From UHGV virus genome UHGV-0177145: a stretch of 15,982 nt of DNA; one strand, 5' to 3'. Source of the DNA: a virus. Shown here one piece after another: positions 2,634 to 15,982 of the stretch (within the stretch, counting starts at the first letter, position 1; each line of letters starts with the position of its first letter). Position numbers and translations under genes: made by a program. Below the pieces are notes generated by a model. The model was not told the DNA's origin. It was given only the letters and a program-made list of their open reading frames with translations, and ran no database searches.

Positions 2634-3806
2634 ATGGCAGTAGGTGAAATTCAAATTAGTGCCTTGCCTCAAGCAGCCTTACCAATTGACCTTAGTGATA
2701 TCTTCCATCTTAAGCAGGGTATTGAGGATAAGAGGTGTACTCTTGAGCAATTACTTGCTCCACACGCAAGCCTGAAAAATAATCCTCATGGTGTTACTAA
2801 AACACAAATTGGTTTAGATAATGTTATTAATGCTCTTCAGTTAGTTGCTGCAAATAACTTATCGGATATTGTTAATGTAGCTGAGGCAAGAGCAAATCTA
2901 CAGATTATGTCTTCAGAAGAGGTCAATAATCTTGTTCAACAGCATATTAATGATAAGAGTAACCCACACAATACAACTAAGGCACAGGTCGGTTTAAGTA
3001 ATGTTCAGAACTGGACAACATCTAACCTGTATAACGAAGATGCAGATAAGTATGCTACAGCAAGAGCAGTAAATAACTTGTACAAGGCTGTTCAGGCTTC
3101 TTATCCAGTAGGTACTATCCATCTTTCTATGAACTCTGCAAACCCTTCTACATACTTAATTTGTGGAGGTACTTGGGAGTTAGTTTCAAAAGGTAGGGCA
3201 TTGGTTGGTTATACCTCTGATGCAAGACCAGCAGGTTCTGTATTTGGTGCTTCAACTGTCACTTTGTCAGTTAATAATATGCCTCAACACTCCCACTCTG
3301 TATCTCTTAGTGGTGGTGGTCATACTCATAATGCAACTGTGTCAATCTCAGCTTTTGACTATGGAACTAAGACTACCAACTCTTTTGACTATGGAACAAA
3401 AGCTACTAACACAACTGGCAACCATACACACAATGTATCAGGTAACACAAGCACAAATGGTACTCACAACCATGATGTGTATCCTAGAGAAAATGATGGT
3501 ACTGGTAATGCTGTAGCTGACTCTGATGGTGGTGGTGCATGGAGAACATCAAGAACTTCTAGTGACGGTGCACACTCACACAGTTTTAACGTCACATCTG
3601 GTGCATCAGGTGACCACAGCCACACGGTTGGTATTGGTGCTCACAGTCATACTGTCGGTATTGGCTCACATACACACAATGGTACTGTGACAGTTTCTTC
3701 TTCTGAGCATACGCATAGTGGAAACACGAACAGTGTTGGTGGTGGACAAGCTTTCAACATTGAACAGCCATCCTTTGTACTGTATGTATGGCAGAGAACA
3801 GCTTAA
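2634..3806 (+). CDS. Tail fibre protein with tail-collar-like domain and His-x-His repeat tip
   Basis: AGGAGA ribosome-binding site before the ATG. Two N-terminal repeats of the NPH..TK.Q(I/V)GL.NV type (HASLKNNPHGVTKTQIGLDNVIN; NDKSNPHNTTKAQVGLSNVQNW). YPVGTIHLSMNSANPSTYLICGGTWEL...LSVNNMPQHSHSV resembles the phage tail collar domain. Eight HxH motifs (HTH, HSH, HNH) in a Gly/Ser/Thr-rich C-terminus ending ...VWQRTA. Confidence 0.8.
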   Translation: MAVGEIQISALPQAALPIDLSDIFHLKQGIEDKRCTLEQLLAPHASLKNNPHGVTKTQIGLDNVINALQLVAANNLSDIVNVAEARANLQIMSSEEVNNLVQQHINDKSNPHNTTKAQVGLSNVQNWTTSNLYNEDADKYATARAVNNLYKAVQASYPVGTIHLSMNSANPSTYLICGGTWELVSKGRALVGYTSDARPAGSVFGASTVTLSVNNMPQHSHSVSLSGGGHTHNATVSISAFDYGTKTTNSFDYGTKATNTTGNHTHNVSGNTSTNGTHNHDVYPRENDGTGNAVADSDGGGAWRTSRTSSDGAHSHSFNVTSGASGDHSHTVGIGAHSHTVGIGSHTHNGTVTVSSSEHTHSGNTNSVGGGQAFNIEQPSFVLYVWQRTA

Positions 3807-3815
3807 TTTCTTTAC

Positions 3816-3836
3816 AGGGGTTTTATAGCCCCTTTT
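3816..3836 (+). terminator. Short GC hairpin plus T4 run between the two fibre genes (weak terminator or attenuator)
   Basis: AGGGG(3816-3820)-ttttatag-CCCCT(3829-3833) followed by TTTT; stem is only 4-5 bp, so weak at best. Confidence 0.25.
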
Positions 3837-3852
3837 AAGAGGAAAATTTATA

Positions 3853-6417
3853 ATGGCAGATTACAAGTTGAGTGAATTAAACTCAATCGACACAATCCGT
3901 TCAGACGACCTTCTTCATGTCAGAGTTAAAAAGAGACCTGAAATGCTGGGTGATGAAGACCGTCGAATGACCTATCAAGATTTCTTAGCATCTTTTAAAC
4001 TTGAGAGATTTGTTCAGATTGCTGGTAGCACTATGACGGGCGACTTAGGGATTGTTAAGTTACTTTATGGTGGTAAAGCAGTATTTGACCCAACAGGTTC
4101 TTCTGAGATTACTATTGGGGATGTTTTAAAGACTTTTAAAATCAATGCAAATGGTCTTAGGCTAACTATTGCAGATGCTTCAAGGTCAGCAACTGTTTAT
4201 CATACCCTGAATAAACCAAGTCCTAATGAGCTTGGGATGAGAACTAATGAAGAGAATGATGCAAGATATGCAAAGCTTGGTGCTAGAAACACATTTAACT
4301 CTCAGCAGACTATTGTAGTAAACGGAGAGCAGCTAACGCTAAGAAACCCTACCAGTGGGAGTGATGCATTCTCTGCTATCGTAGGTAGAGATTCAAGCAA
4401 CGAAAAAGTTTGGGCTATGGGAAATCTAATTAGTGGTAGCCGTGATTTTCGAATCGAGAGTAAACAAGGTTCAGCCATCACTCTAGGCACAAGTGTCACG
4501 ATTAGTAAAACCCTTGCTGTCAATGGTCAAGTGCAACCTGCTGATTGGGCTAACTTAGATGCTAGATACTTTACTCAGACAGTTGCTAATCAGAGATTTG
4601 CACAGTTAGCTGCTAATAACACTTTTAGTGGTTTAAACACCTTCAGCAACTATATTAGTGTTAGTTCTAATGCTGCTGCTATCATGCTAAAAAATAAAGC
4701 TGTTAATGAGTCTTTGTTCATCCTAGCAAAAGATGTTGAAGACAATAATCTGTGGTATATTGGTAAAGGTGATGCGAACGACAATATCACATTTTATGAC
4801 TACAAAGGTGGCACTTCTATTGTCCTAAACTCGTCTGGTGCTGCATTTAACAAGAGTGTAAAAATCACTGGTCAAGTTCAACCTTCCGATTGGACTAACA
4901 TTGATTCTAGATATATTCCAGCAGAGACATTAAGTACAATTGCACGAACTAATGCAATTAACACGTTCACTGAAAAGCAGGTTATTAACACTAATGGTGA
5001 AGCTATTACGTTAAAAGGAAAAACAACTGCATCGCTTTACATTAGAGCTAAGGATTATGATGGAACGAATAGGTGGTATGTTGGCAACGACAGTAAGGGT
5101 GACACTCTTAGTGTGTATAACTATAAAACTGGTAAAAGCCTAAGCATTGGTTCCGAAGTAGCAATTAATGCAAACTTAGTAATTGGTGGTCAAGTACAAC
5201 CTAGCAACTGGTCTAACTTAGATGCTAGATACTTTACTCAAAGTTCTAGCGACGAGAGGTATTTAAGAGTAAGAAGCACAGGCTTCAATCAGGGAAACGG
5301 TGAAAAATGGGCTAAAATTGCTACTGTTGTTATGCCACAATCAGCCTCCACTGCTGTCATTGAGGTATTTGGTGGGTCAGGTTTTAATGTCAATACACCA
5401 CACCAAGCAGGTAAGTGTGAGATTGTTTTAAGAACCTCAAATAGCAATCCAAAAGGTCTAAATGTCGTGGCTTGGAGAACAGCAGATAATACTATCGTCA
5501 CTGATATCGGTCATATTAATACATCTGGTGATACTTATGACATCTACTGTAGAGTTGGTACATACCAAAATGGTACAACATCAAGAGTTCAATCCTCTAG
5601 CAACGCAAGTGTACAGTTGTTTGAAGTCCCACAAACAACTGATGATGCTCCACAAGGTATTGTGAAGGGTACTGTTGCAAAATACTACACTAGTTTGCAA
5701 AAACCAAGCCCTTCAGATATTGGTGCATATACTAAAGCAGAAACTGACCAGAAGATTGCACAGGCAATTAGTGACTCTACAGACCTTAATAAAATCTATC
5801 CAGTAGGTATTGTAACGTGGTTCAACAGTAATGTTGACCCTAACACAGCCCTTCCTGGTCTAACTTGGACGTACCTGAACAATGGTGTTGGTAGAACTAT
5901 CAGAATTGCAGCAGCAAACGGTTCAGATGTTGCTACAACTGGTGGTTCAGACTCTGTAACGTTAGCTGTTGGTAACTTACCATCACACACTCACAGTTTC
6001 TCTGCTACCACTTCATCTTTTGATTATGGTACGAAGGGCACTAATAGTACTGGTGGTCATACTCACTCTGTAAGTGGTACAACAAGTGCTGCTGGTAACC
6101 ACGCTCACCACTTAGGTCTACTATTGGTTAATGGTGGTGATGCTCAGTACGGTTATACCACTATTGGTAACAACAAGACAAGAACTCTTGACTGGCTTGA
6201 CAGAACTGATAACAAGTTCCCTAACACTAACACAACTGGTAACCATACACACACATGGTCTGGTACTACAAGCGGTGCTGGTGACCATTCCCACTCTGTA
6301 GGTATTGGTGCTCACAGCCACACAGTCAGTGGTAACACTGGTAGTACAGGTTCTGGTTCAGCATTTAGTGTTACTAACCAGTTCTACAAGTTAATGGCTT
6401 GGGTAAGAACTGCTTAA
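3853..6417 (+). CDS. Large tail fibre protein (854 aa) with internal tandem repeats and His-x-His repeat tip
   Basis: AAGAGGA ribosome-binding site. Three tandem ~106-115-aa units each ending GQVQP(A/S)(D/N)W(A/T/S)N(L/I)D(A/S)RY. C-terminus has [17 protein letters not shown] and six HxH motifs, and ends ...MAWVRTA, parallel to the upstream fibre. Confidence 0.85.
4525..5240 (+). repeat. Intragenic tandem repeat array (three ~320-345-nt units) inside the large fibre gene
   Basis: ggtcaagt(g/t/a)caacct recurs at 4525, 4870 and 5188. A 28-nt perfect direct repeat ctaacttagatgctagatactttactca lies at 4550-4577 and 5213-5240. Confidence 0.8.
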
Positions 6418-10674: not shown

Positions 10675-10828
10675 GGCAGATTTTTTATAAGGCTACTGCC
10701 ATCCTTCCATACCAAACCACACCCTGCCAAACCAGAGCCTACTAGACCATACCGAACCAAACATCACTTAAAAACCCTTTTAAAAGACTCTTAAGTGATG
10801 TTGGTGAGTACCTGTTGGTTTATGCTGC

Positions 10829-10864: not shown

Positions 10865-11968
10865 TTATTCGTAGTCTCGAATAACTAACCCAACAGGGAA
10901 CTGTAAAGACCCCTTACGAGTCATCTTCTGGAACTGTACCGTTAAAGGTTTCCCGATAAACTCTTCAGGGTGTTCAGCAAGATACTGTTTCTTCTCATGA
11001 GTAGTCTTCCATGAGACATCTACAAATACGTTAGGAAGAGTCTCTACAACGAACTTACCATGACCCCGCTTATCAGTCTTTACACCAGTCACTTTAAACT
11101 CTTCAGTGTGCATCTTCTTGTGCTTAATCAAGAAGTATGAACGGTGACAACACTCATAGAAGGAGTCTTCAGAGATTGAACGGTACATTGCACCTTCAAA
11201 CTTAGCTTCAACCCACTTATCATGAGCTTCATCAAACTCTTCCCAAGAATTTACACGACGAGACTTAACAGGGACAACTTTACAGCCATCTCTAAAGTCA
11301 TTCAATGGTGAAGTCTCAATGATATCTCTACGCTCAGGCCACGTCTTAGTGCTGTCACAGATATCATACCAGTAAAACTTGAGTAGGTGTCTGTCAGGAT
11401 TGTCTTCATTTTTAATCATGGAGACGATATCTTCTAAGTCCCACCCATGAGCATAAATCTCTCCATCAAATTCATCAACATCTTTGTGGAGCCTTAACAT
11501 TGCCATAATGTCAGGTATTAGTTCAGTAGGGATTTTGTAAACAGTATTCTCACGAGAATATGCTGTAAATACACTGCCAATACTCAAGTGCCTTGAAATT
11601 CTACAACGAACACCATCAAGTTTCGGTTGAGCATCAGCAGGGAACTTCAGGTACTTTGCATGGCTAACCTTTGCAGCATCATGAGCAAGCTGTACACCAA
11701 CTTTCTCAGTATTCTGTGCAGACTCTTTTGTGTAAGCATAACCTTTACGGTCAACTTGCTTTTTATACTTTGCAGCAACTTCAAAGAGAGCTTGCTGTTC
11801 AGCGTTACGCTCATTCTTTTTACCGATGTTTTTAGGTTCTGCTGTATACTCTTCAAACATCATCTTGCCATTTTCTTTACCGTAGGTTGTAATAACTTTG
11901 TCACCTACAGCGACGCATGACCAGACGTTAAAAGAGCCATCTTTATTTTGTTTGTACAGTGTTGTCAT
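10865..11968 (-). CDS. lig: ATP-dependent DNA ligase
   Basis: KLDGVR adenylation motif (KxDG, motif I); size (367 aa) in the range of T7-type phage ligases. Confidence 0.88.
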   Translation of the reverse strand: MTTLYKQNKDGSFNVWSCVAVGDKVITTYGKENGKMMFEEYTAEPKNIGKKNERNAEQQALFEVAAKYKKQVDRKGYAYTKESAQNTEKVGVQLAHDAAKVSHAKYLKFPADAQPKLDGVRCRISRHLSIGSVFTAYSRENTVYKIPTELIPDIMAMLRLHKDVDEFDGEIYAHGWDLEDIVSMIKNEDNPDRHLLKFYWYDICDSTKTWPERRDIIETSPLNDFRDGCKVVPVKSRRVNSWEEFDEAHDKWVEAKFEGAMYRSISEDSFYECCHRSYFLIKHKKMHTEEFKVTGVKTDKRGHGKFVVETLPNVFVDVSWKTTHEKKQYLAEHPEEFIGKPLTVQFQKMTRKGSLQFPVGLVIRDYE

Positions 11969-12171
11969 TTTCTCTTACCACCAATTTCTACGTCAATAAC
12001 TTGAACATCACCAGCAACATCAAACTTATGAATGATGCTTTCCACAGTGTAAGTCCAACCATCGATACGAACCAACTCACCTTCTCGTGGGACGATTGGG
12101 TTACGTTGAGCTACCGTTGTAGTAGAGTGAACAACATCATAACGGTAGATATAGTTTACTAGGACTTCCAT
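11965..12171 (-). CDS. Hypothetical protein (68 aa)
   Basis: ATG with AAGGGA ribosome-binding site; stop overlaps the ligase start (ATGA). Confidence 0.5.
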   Translation of the reverse strand: MEVLVNYIYRYDVVHSTTTVAQRNPIVPREGELVRIDGWTYTVESIIHKFDVAGDVQVIDVEIGGKRK

Positions 12172-12180
12172 ATCTTTCCC

Positions 12181-12399
12181 TTAAAAGGATAAGTCAATAT
12201 CAATACGTTCACCCTTAAGGACTCCAGTACGGTCTTTTGCAATCTTCCCTTCAACAATAAGAATGTGTGCAGACCTTAAAGTGTCACTGTTAAAGGCTTT
12301 TACGAACTTGCTAGGCATCACTACAATACACATCTCCTGAATCAACTCTGGAGTATAGCAATTGTCGTGAAGTTGCTGAATAACGTCTGAAAGTGTCAT
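12181..12399 (-). CDS. Hypothetical protein (72 aa from ATG)
   Basis: Track ORF starts at TTG (12414); the ATG at 12397-12399 has a GGAGA ribosome-binding site and overlaps the upstream TGA (ATGA). Confidence 0.5.
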   Translation of the reverse strand: MTLSDVIQQLHDNCYTPELIQEMCIVVMPSKFVKAFNSDTLRSAHILIVEGKIAKDRTGVLKGERIDIDLSF

Positions 12400-12605
12400 T
12401 TTTGATGTCTCCAATACTCAATGTCAATAAGTTCTTGTGCAATGCTTTTCAGATTACCTTTCAAGAAAACCTTCTCAGAACCTGAAAGAGATGAATTGTC
12501 AATTAGCCTGTTCATTCTCTCAAACAACTTCTGCTTACGATTCTTGATAGTTTCCTTTGAAGCACCTTTCATCATCGCTGCATGGGTTCTTCCACGGTGG
12601 CTCAT
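12396..12605 (-). CDS. Hypothetical small basic protein (69 aa)
   Basis: AGGAGGG ribosome-binding site; rich in K/R; no recognised domain. Confidence 0.5.
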   Translation of the reverse strand: MSHRGRTHAAMMKGASKETIKNRKQKLFERMNRLIDNSSLSGSEKVFLKGNLKSIAQELIDIEYWRHQK

Positions 12606-12656
12606 AAGCCCTCCTATACAAGATATTGTATAAGGTACTCTTCCATGAGCACCTTG

Positions 12657-13160
12657 TCAACTTAGTTTTGCAAACTCTCCGTGGAGTTTTATAGCAGCTT
12701 CACAGTAAGCTTTATGGGCTTCTTCAGGTGTGTCAAATAAACCAAGTGATGTCCTTTTACCTCTGCATGTTATAGCTGCCCTCCACTTATTGCAGTCTTT
12801 AAAGTAATATACACCCTTGTAACCTGATTTGTTAGTTGTCTGCTTTACTCTATTTTGAGCATTTCCGTATTTATCAGTCTCCCTAAGATTAGAAATGTGA
12901 TTATTACTTCTGTTACCATCAATGTGGTCTATCATCTTAGTGGGTTTGTAACCATGTTCGAACCACCAAACGAGGTGATGAATTTTTATTACGACATCTT
13001 TGAATTTAAGTACTTTGTAACCGTAAGCATCAGCACCTCCTGCAATCTGCCCAGCTTTAGCTTGTCTATTCCTGTCATACTTGTTGTAGAAGACCCCTTT
13101 GTCGGGGTCGTAAATAAAATTATCCTTGTAATCTTGAAGTGTTAGTGTACGGCGTACCAT
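12657..13160 (-). CDS. HNH homing endonuclease with AP2-type DNA-binding domain
   Basis: HNH core HHLVWWFEHGY...IDHIDGNRSNNHISNL plus AP2-like SGYKGVYYFKDCNKWRAAITCRGKRTSLGLFDTPEEAHKAY. Start overlaps the last 19 nt of the polymerase gene. Confidence 0.8.
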   Translation of the reverse strand: MVRRTLTLQDYKDNFIYDPDKGVFYNKYDRNRQAKAGQIAGGADAYGYKVLKFKDVVIKIHHLVWWFEHGYKPTKMIDHIDGNRSNNHISNLRETDKYGNAQNRVKQTTNKSGYKGVYYFKDCNKWRAAITCRGKRTSLGLFDTPEEAHKAYCEAAIKLHGEFAKLS

Positions 13161-15841
13161 GTCTTACCTACCTTACCAGTGCCTGTAACAAGCGTCTTAC
13201 TCTTTAATCCAAGATTTTTTGATGCTTGACCATACATTCTATCAATAATCTCCTTAACATCAGGTACATCTTTGGTTGGAACCTCTAAAGAGACCTCATC
13301 GTGGTAACTACAGACCCATCTAGCACCAATAGCGGGCTTCCTACCATTTAGAACTGTAAGCTTGCGCTCTGTTAACTCTCTGTTAGCCAAGTTAATACCC
13401 TCATTCTGCACCTGCGCCTCACTTCCCATAAGTGTGTAATTCAATAACTTATGTGGAGATTTACACCATAACCAAGCTCCAGCAACTTTGATATAACCAC
13501 CTTTGGCAATTGCAGAAGTTTTTCCAAAAACCTCTTCAAGTGCTTTCTTAGTTGCTTTGAAGTCTTCCTCTAGTCTATCAAGCAGTTTTTTAATCTTAGG
13601 TAGACGCACAAAGTAAGTTTGTTTAGTCAATGCACCCTCTTCCGTAGATGATGCCTTGATAGTTTTTGCAAACTTCTCGTCTCCGGCTCCAAATAACAGG
13701 GCGTAGATGCCATTTTTGCTCTTCTTACGACCTTTTGTAATCTCGTGGAGAAGTTCCTCATCCTGTGTCTCCCTGCAACGAACAATATCCTCTTCTTTGT
13801 TAAGACCAAAGTAAATACTGTTCAGTGTATGCGCATCAGTCCCTGTGTAGACTTCATAGAGGTCATTTTCAGCATCATAACGCAGATACTTGTCAGTTTC
13901 TGGGTTAAGATACTTGTCAAGATGTTTACAGTAATATCTACCATCATCTTGCTTAGTGAACTCTACTGACTCTTTACCCTCAGTTACCGCTTTAGTGAAG
14001 TCTTCATCACCCATAAAGTTACAAAGGAGAACTAGCTGTGCTGAGTTTTGGTCTACGGAGATGATATCTGTACCATCTTCACAAGTCCACACCTCCCTCA
14101 TAGGTGCTCCATAGACAGCAGCACCAGACGGTACGTTTACAATACCATACTGAGTCATACGTCCAGTTGAAGTACCAAACACCATTGCGCCAGCACTAAG
14201 GCGACCATCTGGACGAATCTGGTTCAACCAACCTTTTTCATCATCCTTTGAGTTCTCAATAGTTCTGCGTCGGTGCATCAAAGTATAGTACTTAGCAATC
14301 TTCTGTCCAAGCTCACCTTCAATCGTATCATAAGATGACTCAGTAAGTTTTGGTGAAGTACGGATTAAGCAAGGTTCAAGCAAATCTGTGTACTTCTTCA
14401 CAGACCAGTTATGTTCAATGTACTGGACACCTTCATGTTCAACATAACTCAAACCACACCGTTCCACCATCTCATCCCATTTAGGATGCTTTGTAATCAT
14501 CTTTTTGTTGTCTTTGAAGCGACAAACCTTAACAGGACGACCATCAGAGTCTTTCTTGTAGTTCCAGTCATCTGGAATCCAACCAACTGATTTCAAGTAG
14601 TCTTTAACAACTGCTACCTGAGTCATACGAGAAACTTCGAACTCAATTGGTGTATATGGTGCATCAATCAAACCTGTGTAGCGACTTGACTCAAGCTCAA
14701 AGTGGTTAACAACATGGCTGTTATAGTACTTCACAGTTTTAACTGTTTTTACTGGCTTCCAGTCTTTGCACTTCTTACCAATCTTTGCATTCAACTCATT
14801 GCAAATTGCACGAGCATCCTTCATTGCTACAAAACCTTCCTTGTACTCTTCACCAGTTACAGAGTTGGTTGGTGTATAGCAATTCCGCTTTTCAATGTTA
14901 AAAATCTTTGTAGTTGGTTTACCAAATGGCTTGATTTCATATGTCTGCATCTCACCGTTACGTACCTGTTGACGATACTTTGTCTTAGGGTACTTGGTAA
15001 TTCTCTTCAGTCCATCTGCATGACCAAACGCTTCAACATACTCATTCCAAGCTTTTGCAAATTCTTCTCCAGTGACTTTACCTTTGGTCTTAATAGTTGG
15101 AGGAAGATGTGGTTCAACTTCTGAAGCAAGCTCATTAGTCAACTTGTCAAGTTCCTTTACATGGAACTCCATAAGTTCTTTATCAGCTTTCCAACCATTA
15201 ATAGCCTGTTGACTCATCCAGAAAGATGTCTCTTTAGCTCGCATATAGGTTTCATAAGTGTCTATGCCACACTTCTTAAGCTTGAGATATTCATTATCAA
15301 GTGCCCGTTTAGTTTTGGCGTTAATGCGAATATCTTCTACAACACGAGTGAAGATTTCTGCATTCCACACACCCCAATGTTCAATCTCTGGTTTACGTAC
15401 ACCAACACGAGCACCCCATGCTGCCAAGCCATGAGCACCTTTATAGCCCTTTGGAGTTGGTCTATCCATCCACTGAACACGAGATTGGATAAGAGAATCC
15501 TGAAAGAAATTGCTCCACGGCTTACACTTTGGATTATCAAAGTTCCATAAATCAGGTGCAATGTGATTGAAAACCCACCAGTCATACCCCAGACCATTAT
15601 GGATGCAAAGTCGTTTTGCCTTTAACGCAAACTCAACACCTTCACGCAAGCCACCCTTAATGTACTTGGTATACTTGTGACCGAGGATAGGCTCATCTGT
15701 AAAGACCCATACAGGTGGCTCTTCATCGTCAGATTTATAGTCTGCGAAAGCCATTACGTGCACTTTAGTGAACTCAAGGAGTAAACCATCAGTTTCTGTA
15801 TCACCAACTAAATGTAAGTTTTTAAAATCTACGTTTTCCAT
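13142..15841 (-). CDS. Family A (T7-like) DNA polymerase with 3'-5' exonuclease domain
   Basis: Exo motifs DTETDG and HNGLGYD. Polymerase motif B KSKNGIYALLFGAGDEKF (T7-like), motif C SYHDEV, motif A-like VDQNSAQLVLL. Start moved from the track (15871) to ATG 15839-15841, which has a GAGGGAG ribosome-binding site 6 nt upstream. Confidence 0.9.
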   Translation of the reverse strand: MENVDFKNLHLVGDTETDGLLLEFTKVHVMAFADYKSDDEEPPVWVFTDEPILGHKYTKYIKGGLREGVEFALKAKRLCIHNGLGYDWWVFNHIAPDLWNFDNPKCKPWSNFFQDSLIQSRVQWMDRPTPKGYKGAHGLAAWGARVGVRKPEIEHWGVWNAEIFTRVVEDIRINAKTKRALDNEYLKLKKCGIDTYETYMRAKETSFWMSQQAINGWKADKELMEFHVKELDKLTNELASEVEPHLPPTIKTKGKVTGEEFAKAWNEYVEAFGHADGLKRITKYPKTKYRQQVRNGEMQTYEIKPFGKPTTKIFNIEKRNCYTPTNSVTGEEYKEGFVAMKDARAICNELNAKIGKKCKDWKPVKTVKTVKYYNSHVVNHFELESSRYTGLIDAPYTPIEFEVSRMTQVAVVKDYLKSVGWIPDDWNYKKDSDGRPVKVCRFKDNKKMITKHPKWDEMVERCGLSYVEHEGVQYIEHNWSVKKYTDLLEPCLIRTSPKLTESSYDTIEGELGQKIAKYYTLMHRRRTIENSKDDEKGWLNQIRPDGRLSAGAMVFGTSTGRMTQYGIVNVPSGAAVYGAPMREVWTCEDGTDIISVDQNSAQLVLLCNFMGDEDFTKAVTEGKESVEFTKQDDGRYYCKHLDKYLNPETDKYLRYDAENDLYEVYTGTDAHTLNSIYFGLNKEEDIVRCRETQDEELLHEITKGRKKSKNGIYALLFGAGDEKFAKTIKASSTEEGALTKQTYFVRLPKIKKLLDRLEEDFKATKKALEEVFGKTSAIAKGGYIKVAGAWLWCKSPHKLLNYTLMGSEAQVQNEGINLANRELTERKLTVLNGRKPAIGARWVCSYHDEVSLEVPTKDVPDVKEIIDRMYGQASKNLGLKSKTLVTGTGKVGKTWYAVH

Positions 15842-15982
15842 TTTTACTCCCTCTAAAATCATTAACCTCATACATTACTGCAAAAAATTATAAAAAGCAA
15901 GTTGACAATGTACTTGACAAGGTGTTAATCTTTGCGAAGTGGGTTTTTACTTAAAAGGTTACTTAACAGTTTAACTATACAG

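Follow-up and report, generated by a model that had tools for sequence, protein, structure and literature searches.

The window (the whole 15,982-nt stretch analysed here, from UHGV virus genome UHGV-0177145) carries, directly behind its DNA polymerase gene, a gene that we designate type A. We put at roughly 80% the probability that it is a free-standing HNH-AP2 homing endonuclease, situated between the polymerase stop codon and a conserved block before the next gene and operating by the mechanism set out below. The window comes from a Felix O1-like myovirus of the genus Felixounavirus; the best public genomes matched ~90% of it at ~93% identity, and none was identical. The gene is already known, having been annotated in Felix O1 since the deposit of that genome, and is an ordinary example of a known selfish element. 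Felix O1 ORF95 (Felix01p176, NP_944955.1, 'HNH endonuclease') is the same gene in the same position, directly after the ORF96 polymerase and with the same 19-nt overlap. The genes annotated as 'homing endonuclease' in momo, skuden, humlepung, pinkbiff and other phages are likewise the same gene and differ in nothing of substance. The type A gene was 99% identical in nucleotide sequence to the Felix O1, FO1a and skuden copies, and in protein sequence it was identical (100%) to the homing endonuclease annotated in Escherichia phage momo. Homologs at less than 60% identity were found in more than 3,000 phage records, and the family is very widespread. Coordinates of the features discussed are collected in Table 1.

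Table 1. Features in and around the polymerase/ORF94 junction, in window coordinates.
Feature	Coordinates	Strand	Remarks
Candidate HNH-AP2 homing endonuclease gene, type A	12657..13160	(-)	ATG start, TGA stop, 167 aa
HNH_3 nuclease core, aa 60-98	12867..12983	(-)	D78-H79 and N91 inside; N100 just downstream
AP2 DNA-binding domain, aa 112-161	12678..12827	(-)	Pfam PF00847
Polymerase/endonuclease overlap, 19 nt	13142..13160	(-)	two ORFs in different frames
Shine-Dalgarno-like AAGGTAGGT	13166..13174	(-)	5 nt before endonuclease ATG, within polymerase CDS
Family A DNA polymerase gene, 909 aa, Felix O1 ORF96 homolog	13142..15871	(-)	Pfam DNA_pol_A 2.7e-15; phrog_17 1e-112
First downstream gene, 69 aa, Felix O1 ORF94 homolog	12396..12605	(-)	phrog_5180; function not assigned
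ATP-dependent ligase	10865..11968		two more small ORFs between ORF94 homolog and ligase
Shared 3' tail of endonuclease gene	12657..12762	(-)	last 69 to 106 nt by lineage, 90-99% nt identity with the other three
G+C-rich inverted repeat GACCCC-N6-GGGGTC	13092..13109	(-)	codes D-P-x-x-G-V of N-terminal YDPxxGV motif
Polymerase 3' tract, ~960 nt, variant strictly linked to type A	13151..14108	(-)	215 diagnostic sites spanning 14108-13151
Conserved intergenic block TTGACAAGGTGCTCATGGAAGAGTACCTTATAC	12628..12660	(-)	endonuclease TGA stop inside its TTGACA

The preliminary description had named an HNH-AP2 endonuclease, and both domains were recovered well above the Pfam cut-offs. HNH_3 (PF13392) matched residues 60-98 with 44.8 bits against a cut-off of 24.8 (E 9.9e-12), and AP2 (PF00847) matched residues 112-161 with 44.0 bits against a cut-off of 33.3 (E 2.8e-11); in PHROGs the protein fell in phrog_99, 'HNH endonuclease' (3e-63). 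The HNH nuclease precedes the AP2 domain within one polypeptide, which is the arrangement of the HNH-AP2 class. A phmmer comparison aligned residues 56-111 with residues 51-108 of I-HmuI (PDB 1U3E, E 3.4e-4), placing DHIDGN..NNHISNLR..NAQN of the endonuclease opposite DHKDGN..NNLSTNLR..NVEN of I-HmuI. In this alignment D78-H79, N91 and N100 correspond to the conserved DH...N...N positions of I-HmuI, and following the structure work on that enzyme we take them to be the catalytic (metal-binding and general-base) residues. The nuclease domain is of a class found in homing endonucleases, with its catalytic motif intact. The AP2 domain, in a sequence search of the PDB, matched the plant AP2/ERF proteins WRI1 (7wq5, 1.7e-4) and ERF096 (5wx9, 5.4e-3).

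The gene had also been called free-standing, with a start 19 nt inside the polymerase coding end, and both statements were borne out. The polymerase gene is uninterrupted in the window and lies upstream of the endonuclease on the same strand; the endonuclease ORF begins 19 nt short of the polymerase stop, in a different frame, and continues beyond it. Because its frame differs from that of the polymerase and it extends past the polymerase stop, the gene is not an intein, and because Rfam detected no group I intron in the window, though relatives yielded one, it is not intron-encoded. The endonuclease ATG arises in the polymerase codons ..ACA TGG.. (T-W), where other alleles have AGC TGG (S-W) and no ATG. 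The Shine-Dalgarno-like AAGGTAGGT within the polymerase coding sequence presumably functions as the ribosome-binding site of the endonuclease.

One correction applies to the junction itself. The endonuclease had been placed at a polymerase-to-ligase junction, but the site is the polymerase/ORF94 junction, and three small ORFs intervene between endonuclease and ligase in the window. The ORF94 homolog was 92-99% identical across all junction classes. The intergenic stretch 12606-12660, between this gene and the endonuclease, hardly varies within the genus or between genera. Its TTGACA is followed by an 8-bp hairpin (AGGTGCUC-AUGGAA-GAGUACCU), which lies shortly before the ORF94 ribosome-binding site, and a 136-nt region around the conserved block folds with z = -2.1. 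The TTGACA block was not called as a sigma-70 promoter, as the -10 element failed in the scan. The scan found no terminator either at this block or between the polymerase and endonuclease genes. A second hairpin before the ORF94 ribosome-binding site was considered and dropped, since by inspection its stem is not kept in fjerdesal.

The junction was compared in a sample of 25 loci, consisting of the window and 24 related loci (6 GenBank records and 18 from IMG/VR; individual loci are given as L numbers), by the distance from the polymerase stop to the conserved block. Ten of the 25 junctions were empty, with the polymerase stop followed by 5-6 nt and then the conserved TTGACAAGGTGCTC... block. 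Six had the 481-nt insert of type A, and the remainder had inserts of 508, 519/531 or 533 nt. Such a comparison had been proposed beforehand, with the expectation that a mobile gene would be missing from some relatives, and endonuclease-minus alleles do exist (fjerdesal, KhF1 and eight further loci), so that not all relatives carry the gene. In fjerdesal and KhF1 the polymerase stop is followed by TTAGTA and then by the same TTGACAAGGTGCTCATGGAAGAGTACCTTATAC block that stands 3' of the endonuclease in the window. Presence and absence are thus precise alternatives at one site among close relatives. The empty junctions are not explained by simple deletion between the short ACTAA repeats flanking the insert, because they carry TTAGTA or TAGTG, which are absent from occupied sites.

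A wider search of public records gave a similar picture. A 120-nt probe spanning the empty fjerdesal junction was matched at 90% identity or more by ~96 of 291 records; among the matches listed, the upper-ranked ones were single uninterrupted 120-nt alignments, and those interrupted by an endonuclease first appeared at 88% and below. An endonuclease gene with the shared 3' tail was present in 156 public records, and 18 records had the full type A gene. Roughly half of the relatives therefore have an occupied site, which in about 6% of relatives holds type A, and the site is empty in about a third or more.

Four divergent HNH-AP2 lineages were found to occupy the site, with inserts of 481 (A), 519/531 (B), 508 (C) and 533 nt (D). 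Types B, C and D encode HNH-AP2 proteins of 170-177 aa. Outside the last 24 residues the four lineages share 30-49% pairwise protein identity; within those residues (..EEAHKAYCEAAIKLHGEFAKLS) they are 83-100% identical. In all four the stop is a TGA that forms part of the TTGACA in the conserved block. The start positions vary, type A overlapping the polymerase by 19 nt and type C by 1 nt, and B and D beginning 3-10 nt past the polymerase stop. Partial matches of the type A gene to public records fell into the classes 1-69, 1-79 and 1-106, at 90-100% identity, and nucleotide identity in the shared tail was at the same level as in the downstream flank. This is most simply read as recombination between occupied genomes often being resolved within the shared tail. 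On matched polymerase ends, compared over the last 300 nt, type C was present in one member of a pair and absent from the other (L007 versus L012, 92%; L022, phage Michonne, versus L023, 94%), a pattern that documents recent gain or loss at the site. The junction is a hot spot for HNH-AP2 endonucleases. The earlier proposal of a mobile-element insertion point was accordingly supported as to mobility, given the empty alleles and the four lineages at the site, and had to be changed as to place, polymerase/ORF94 instead of polymerase/ligase.

The endonuclease gene also contains the inverted repeat GACCCC-N6-GGGGTC, and no other G/C-rich element lies nearby. The repeat occurs once in the window (0 expected by chance) and was found exactly once in each of the 14 endonuclease-bearing loci, covering all four lineages, and in none of the 10 empty loci. 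Its RNA fold was calculated at -13 kcal/mol (z = -2.25), and the element may be a hairpin in the RNA or a G/C-rich site for protein binding. The repeat uses the rare codons CCC and GGG in a phage of 39% G+C, and its stem is invariant.

The type A gene is strictly linked to a variant of the polymerase 3' end. From position 15982 down to ~14130, the window was 93-100% identical to nearly all Felixounavirus genomes, whatever their junction class. Identity to non-type-A genomes then fell to 67-85% over 14130-13430 and to 45-62% over 13430-13200, and downstream of the junction it was 92-99% to Felixounavirus of every junction class. Identity to the other type A genomes over the tract was 82-100% per 60-nt bin, and mostly at least 90%. 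Taken by gene segments, the first 1700 nt of the polymerase were 95-99% identical across all Felixounavirus junction classes; over the last 300 nt the type A genomes were 92-99% identical to one another and 59-66% to all others, which is below the 73-85% found between Felixounavirus and the sample's more distant members.

The 18 public records with a type A polymerase end are exactly those with the type A gene, and in each of them (18/18) the two are contiguous; the closest other polymerase end was 70% identical in nucleotide sequence. The C-terminal 110 aa of the polymerase were 95-100% identical within the type A group (at least 99% in 16 of 18); no other phage exceeded 73.6%, and Erwinia and Pectobacterium phages reached 63-65%. 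The distance of the tract from other Felix O1-like polymerases is about that of the polymerases of other genera, and the tract has the look of sequence imported from a relative not yet sampled. A search for the donor lineage found none, the best other matches (70% nt, 73.6% aa) all being ordinary Felix O1-like phages. One type D locus (L017) carries the distal part of the tract only.

The left tract boundary near 14108 is common to 11 of the 12 type A genomes, with Felix O1 switching six sites later. Because the boundary is shared, repeated homing and a single acquisition fit the linkage equally, and one ancestral acquisition followed by ordinary recombination fits just as well as repeated homing. 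The uniform boundary also speaks for a rival explanation that we consider unlikely, in which a formerly mobile endonuclease entered once with a foreign polymerase 3' end, became a vertically inherited passenger, and was scattered by ordinary homologous recombination. The occurrence of type A at this one site only, and in Felixounavirus only, points the same way, as does the search for an empty allele with a type A polymerase end, which found none among public records, all empty alleles being only ~60% identical there. The relationships of the genomes tell against such a passenger: upstream of the tract the window was closest to the empty-site locus L015 (98%) and Felix O1 to the type C locus L007 (99%), so that backbone relationships do not follow junction class and the type A cassette sits on different backbones.

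The state of the gene weighs further against the passenger. The 12 type A copies were all intact 167-aa ORFs (12 distinct DNA sequences, 10 distinct proteins), and their mean pairwise dN/dS was 0.08, with the lowest value, 0.04, in the HNH core. A functionless gene should gain frameshifts and replacements; since all copies are intact and dN/dS is low, type A is a maintained, probably active protein, and not a decaying remnant. Such strong purifying selection is also expected of a protein useful to the phage, and we weighed whether an HNH-AP2 protein has been domesticated here, as a DNA-binding regulator of the downstream early genes or as a nuclease weapon against co-infecting relatives. The strict co-inheritance with one particular polymerase C-terminus and the embedding of the endonuclease stop codon in the conserved block before the next gene agree with domestication, as does the G/C-rich inverted repeat in all four lineages, given that AP2 domains of HNH-AP2 proteins are reported, in a paper citing Magnani 2004, to bind poly(G)/poly(C) (PMC6781369). 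However, viable isolates without a gene at the site make up about a third or more of the close relatives, and lineages of 30-49% identity can stand in for one another as its occupant; because of this absence and this exchangeability a dispensable selfish element fits better than an integrated function, and we regard domestication as very unlikely.

As a free-standing homing endonuclease, the reading that we favour, type A would be expressed from the polymerase transcript, using for translation a ribosome-binding site of its own within the last polymerase codons. During mixed infection with a non-carrier Felix O1-like phage, the enzyme would nick or cut the DNA of the rival within or close to the 3' end of the polymerase gene, and repair would copy the endonuclease gene and the adjoining ~1 kb of the carrier polymerase gene into the rival. 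The carrier would be spared by the strong divergence of its own polymerase 3' end. Enzymes of the I-HmuI type make single-strand nicks and are able to cut the genome that encodes them as well, so the simple picture of a double-strand break combined with self-immunity may not apply. Since no empty allele with a type A polymerase end was recovered, recent invasion by type A itself is not documented.

A more elaborate version of the homing reading is possible, and we offer it tentatively, as it is on balance doubtful. The endonuclease and the ~960-nt tract might form one co-inherited cassette, an inter-phage weapon that replaces the polymerase C-termini of rivals; the GACCCC-N6-GGGGTC hairpin and the last 69-106 nt of the gene might then be its cis-acting parts (serving, for instance, as a site for binding or regulation and as an anchor for recombination), enabling the lineages to displace one another.

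Among known systems, I-HmuI of Bacillus phage SPO1, an HNH_3 nicking homing endonuclease, resembles the endonuclease of the window in the core DH...N...N positions and in its association with a phage DNA polymerase gene. The SPO1 enzyme is the product of an ORF within a group I intron, and its C-terminal domain is a helix-turn-helix. The endonuclease of the window shares the core similarity, but it is free-standing instead of intron-encoded and has an AP2 domain in place of the helix-turn-helix. The T4-type free-standing endonucleases SegG, SegF and MobE are like type A in lying between essential genes, in being absent from close relatives and in having a linked flanking tract. The Seg proteins, in contrast, are GIY-YIG enzymes and MobE is an HNH enzyme without AP2, whereas type A combines HNH and AP2. 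Cleavage at a distance and co-conversion were shown experimentally for the T4 enzymes, according to the references given in PMC10448857, and for type A we infer them.

The HNH-AP2 class goes back to Magnani, Sjolander & Hake (2004) and Wuitschick et al. (2004), who, as cited in later papers, described it from Trichodesmium, Tetrahymena, RB49 and Felix 01 (PMC6781369, PMC10448857, PMC2993671). According to these citing papers the class has an N-terminal HNH and a C-terminal AP2 domain, as in the endonuclease of the window, and Felix 01 is a founding example. Felix O1 itself has six HNH homing-endonuclease-like genes, none of them in frame with its neighbours (PMC3185647), and the content of endonuclease genes varies among Felixounavirus genomes (PMC8300805).

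Barth et al. (2023, PMC10448857) described different endonuclease genes at one location in related phages, and endonuclease genes at the boundaries of genetic exchange. Their islands are like that of the window, with swapped occupants beside a DNA polymerase gene at the boundary between conserved and divergent sequence. The IPA-HNH proteins of the same study have an HNH too divergent for Pfam HNH_3; the endonuclease of the window matches HNH_3 and does not belong with them. We found no mention of Felix O1-like phages in that paper, and our literature search found no paper analysing the polymerase/ORF94 junction or the linked polymerase tract in particular. The observations on junction and tract do fit established concepts, namely marker exclusion and co-conversion as in T4 Seg and Mob, and endonucleases at exchange boundaries.

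As the HNH-AP2 class was defined two decades ago with Felix O1 among its examples, the gene by itself matters little. The empty alleles, the four exchangeable lineages and the bounded, xenolog-like polymerase tail together make a clean natural data set on how endonucleases shape an essential gene, to which a nearby intron site adds its own apparent short co-conversion tract, and which could guide simple phage crosses. For the engineering and typing of Felix O1-like therapeutic phages, it matters that polymerase-based phylogenies are distorted at the 3' end.

The intron site lies in the polymerase gene of relatives at window position 13700|13701 (codons ..KNGIYA|LLFGAGDE..), and the intron is absent from the window. 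Rfam RF00028 scored this group I intron at 61.3 bits in tootiki and 59.9 bits in fKMPT1; it is 267-268 nt long and has no ORF. Among the sampled loci it was placed at 3736-4019(-) in L030 and 3737-4019(-) in L025, and in Si3 (L007) and L012 it is longer, 801-804 nt, and contains a Cys-rich ORF of 160-179 aa. In L025 and L030, which are type A with the intron, the diagnostic sites flanking the intron (window ~13690-13760) switch to non-type-A, with the tract otherwise type A; the patch looks like a short co-conversion tract from homing of the intron. The intron probably explains many 'DNA polymerase (x2)' annotations. Phage Mushroom was described with two polymerase genes and a 383-bp ORF-less spacer, which was not called an intron there (PMC4392139), and the same polymerase intron is probably the explanation of that spacer.

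The small ORFs between the ORF94 homolog and the ligase differ in number and identity among close relatives (window 11965-12605 compared with L001 3144-4390, L006 and L025-L030). Small ORFs number 3 in total in the window, 6 in Felix O1 and 2 in P219, so that variability in the polymerase-to-ligase interval extends well past the endonuclease site. Downstream of the ligase, a 282-nt non-coding stretch contains three imperfect direct repeats of CCATACCAAACCACAC (window 10707-10762), with several inverted repeats close by, and in humlepung the equivalent intergenic stretch has an annotated repeat_region.

Four public records assigned to other hosts, GU169904 (Staphylococcus phage SA1) and MG065664, MG065668 and MG065669 (Campylobacter phages A132, A126 and A123), contain Felix O1-like polymerase and endonuclease sequence that is 92-98% identical to the window; these are most likely mixed or mislabelled assemblies, rather than cases of cross-phylum transfer.
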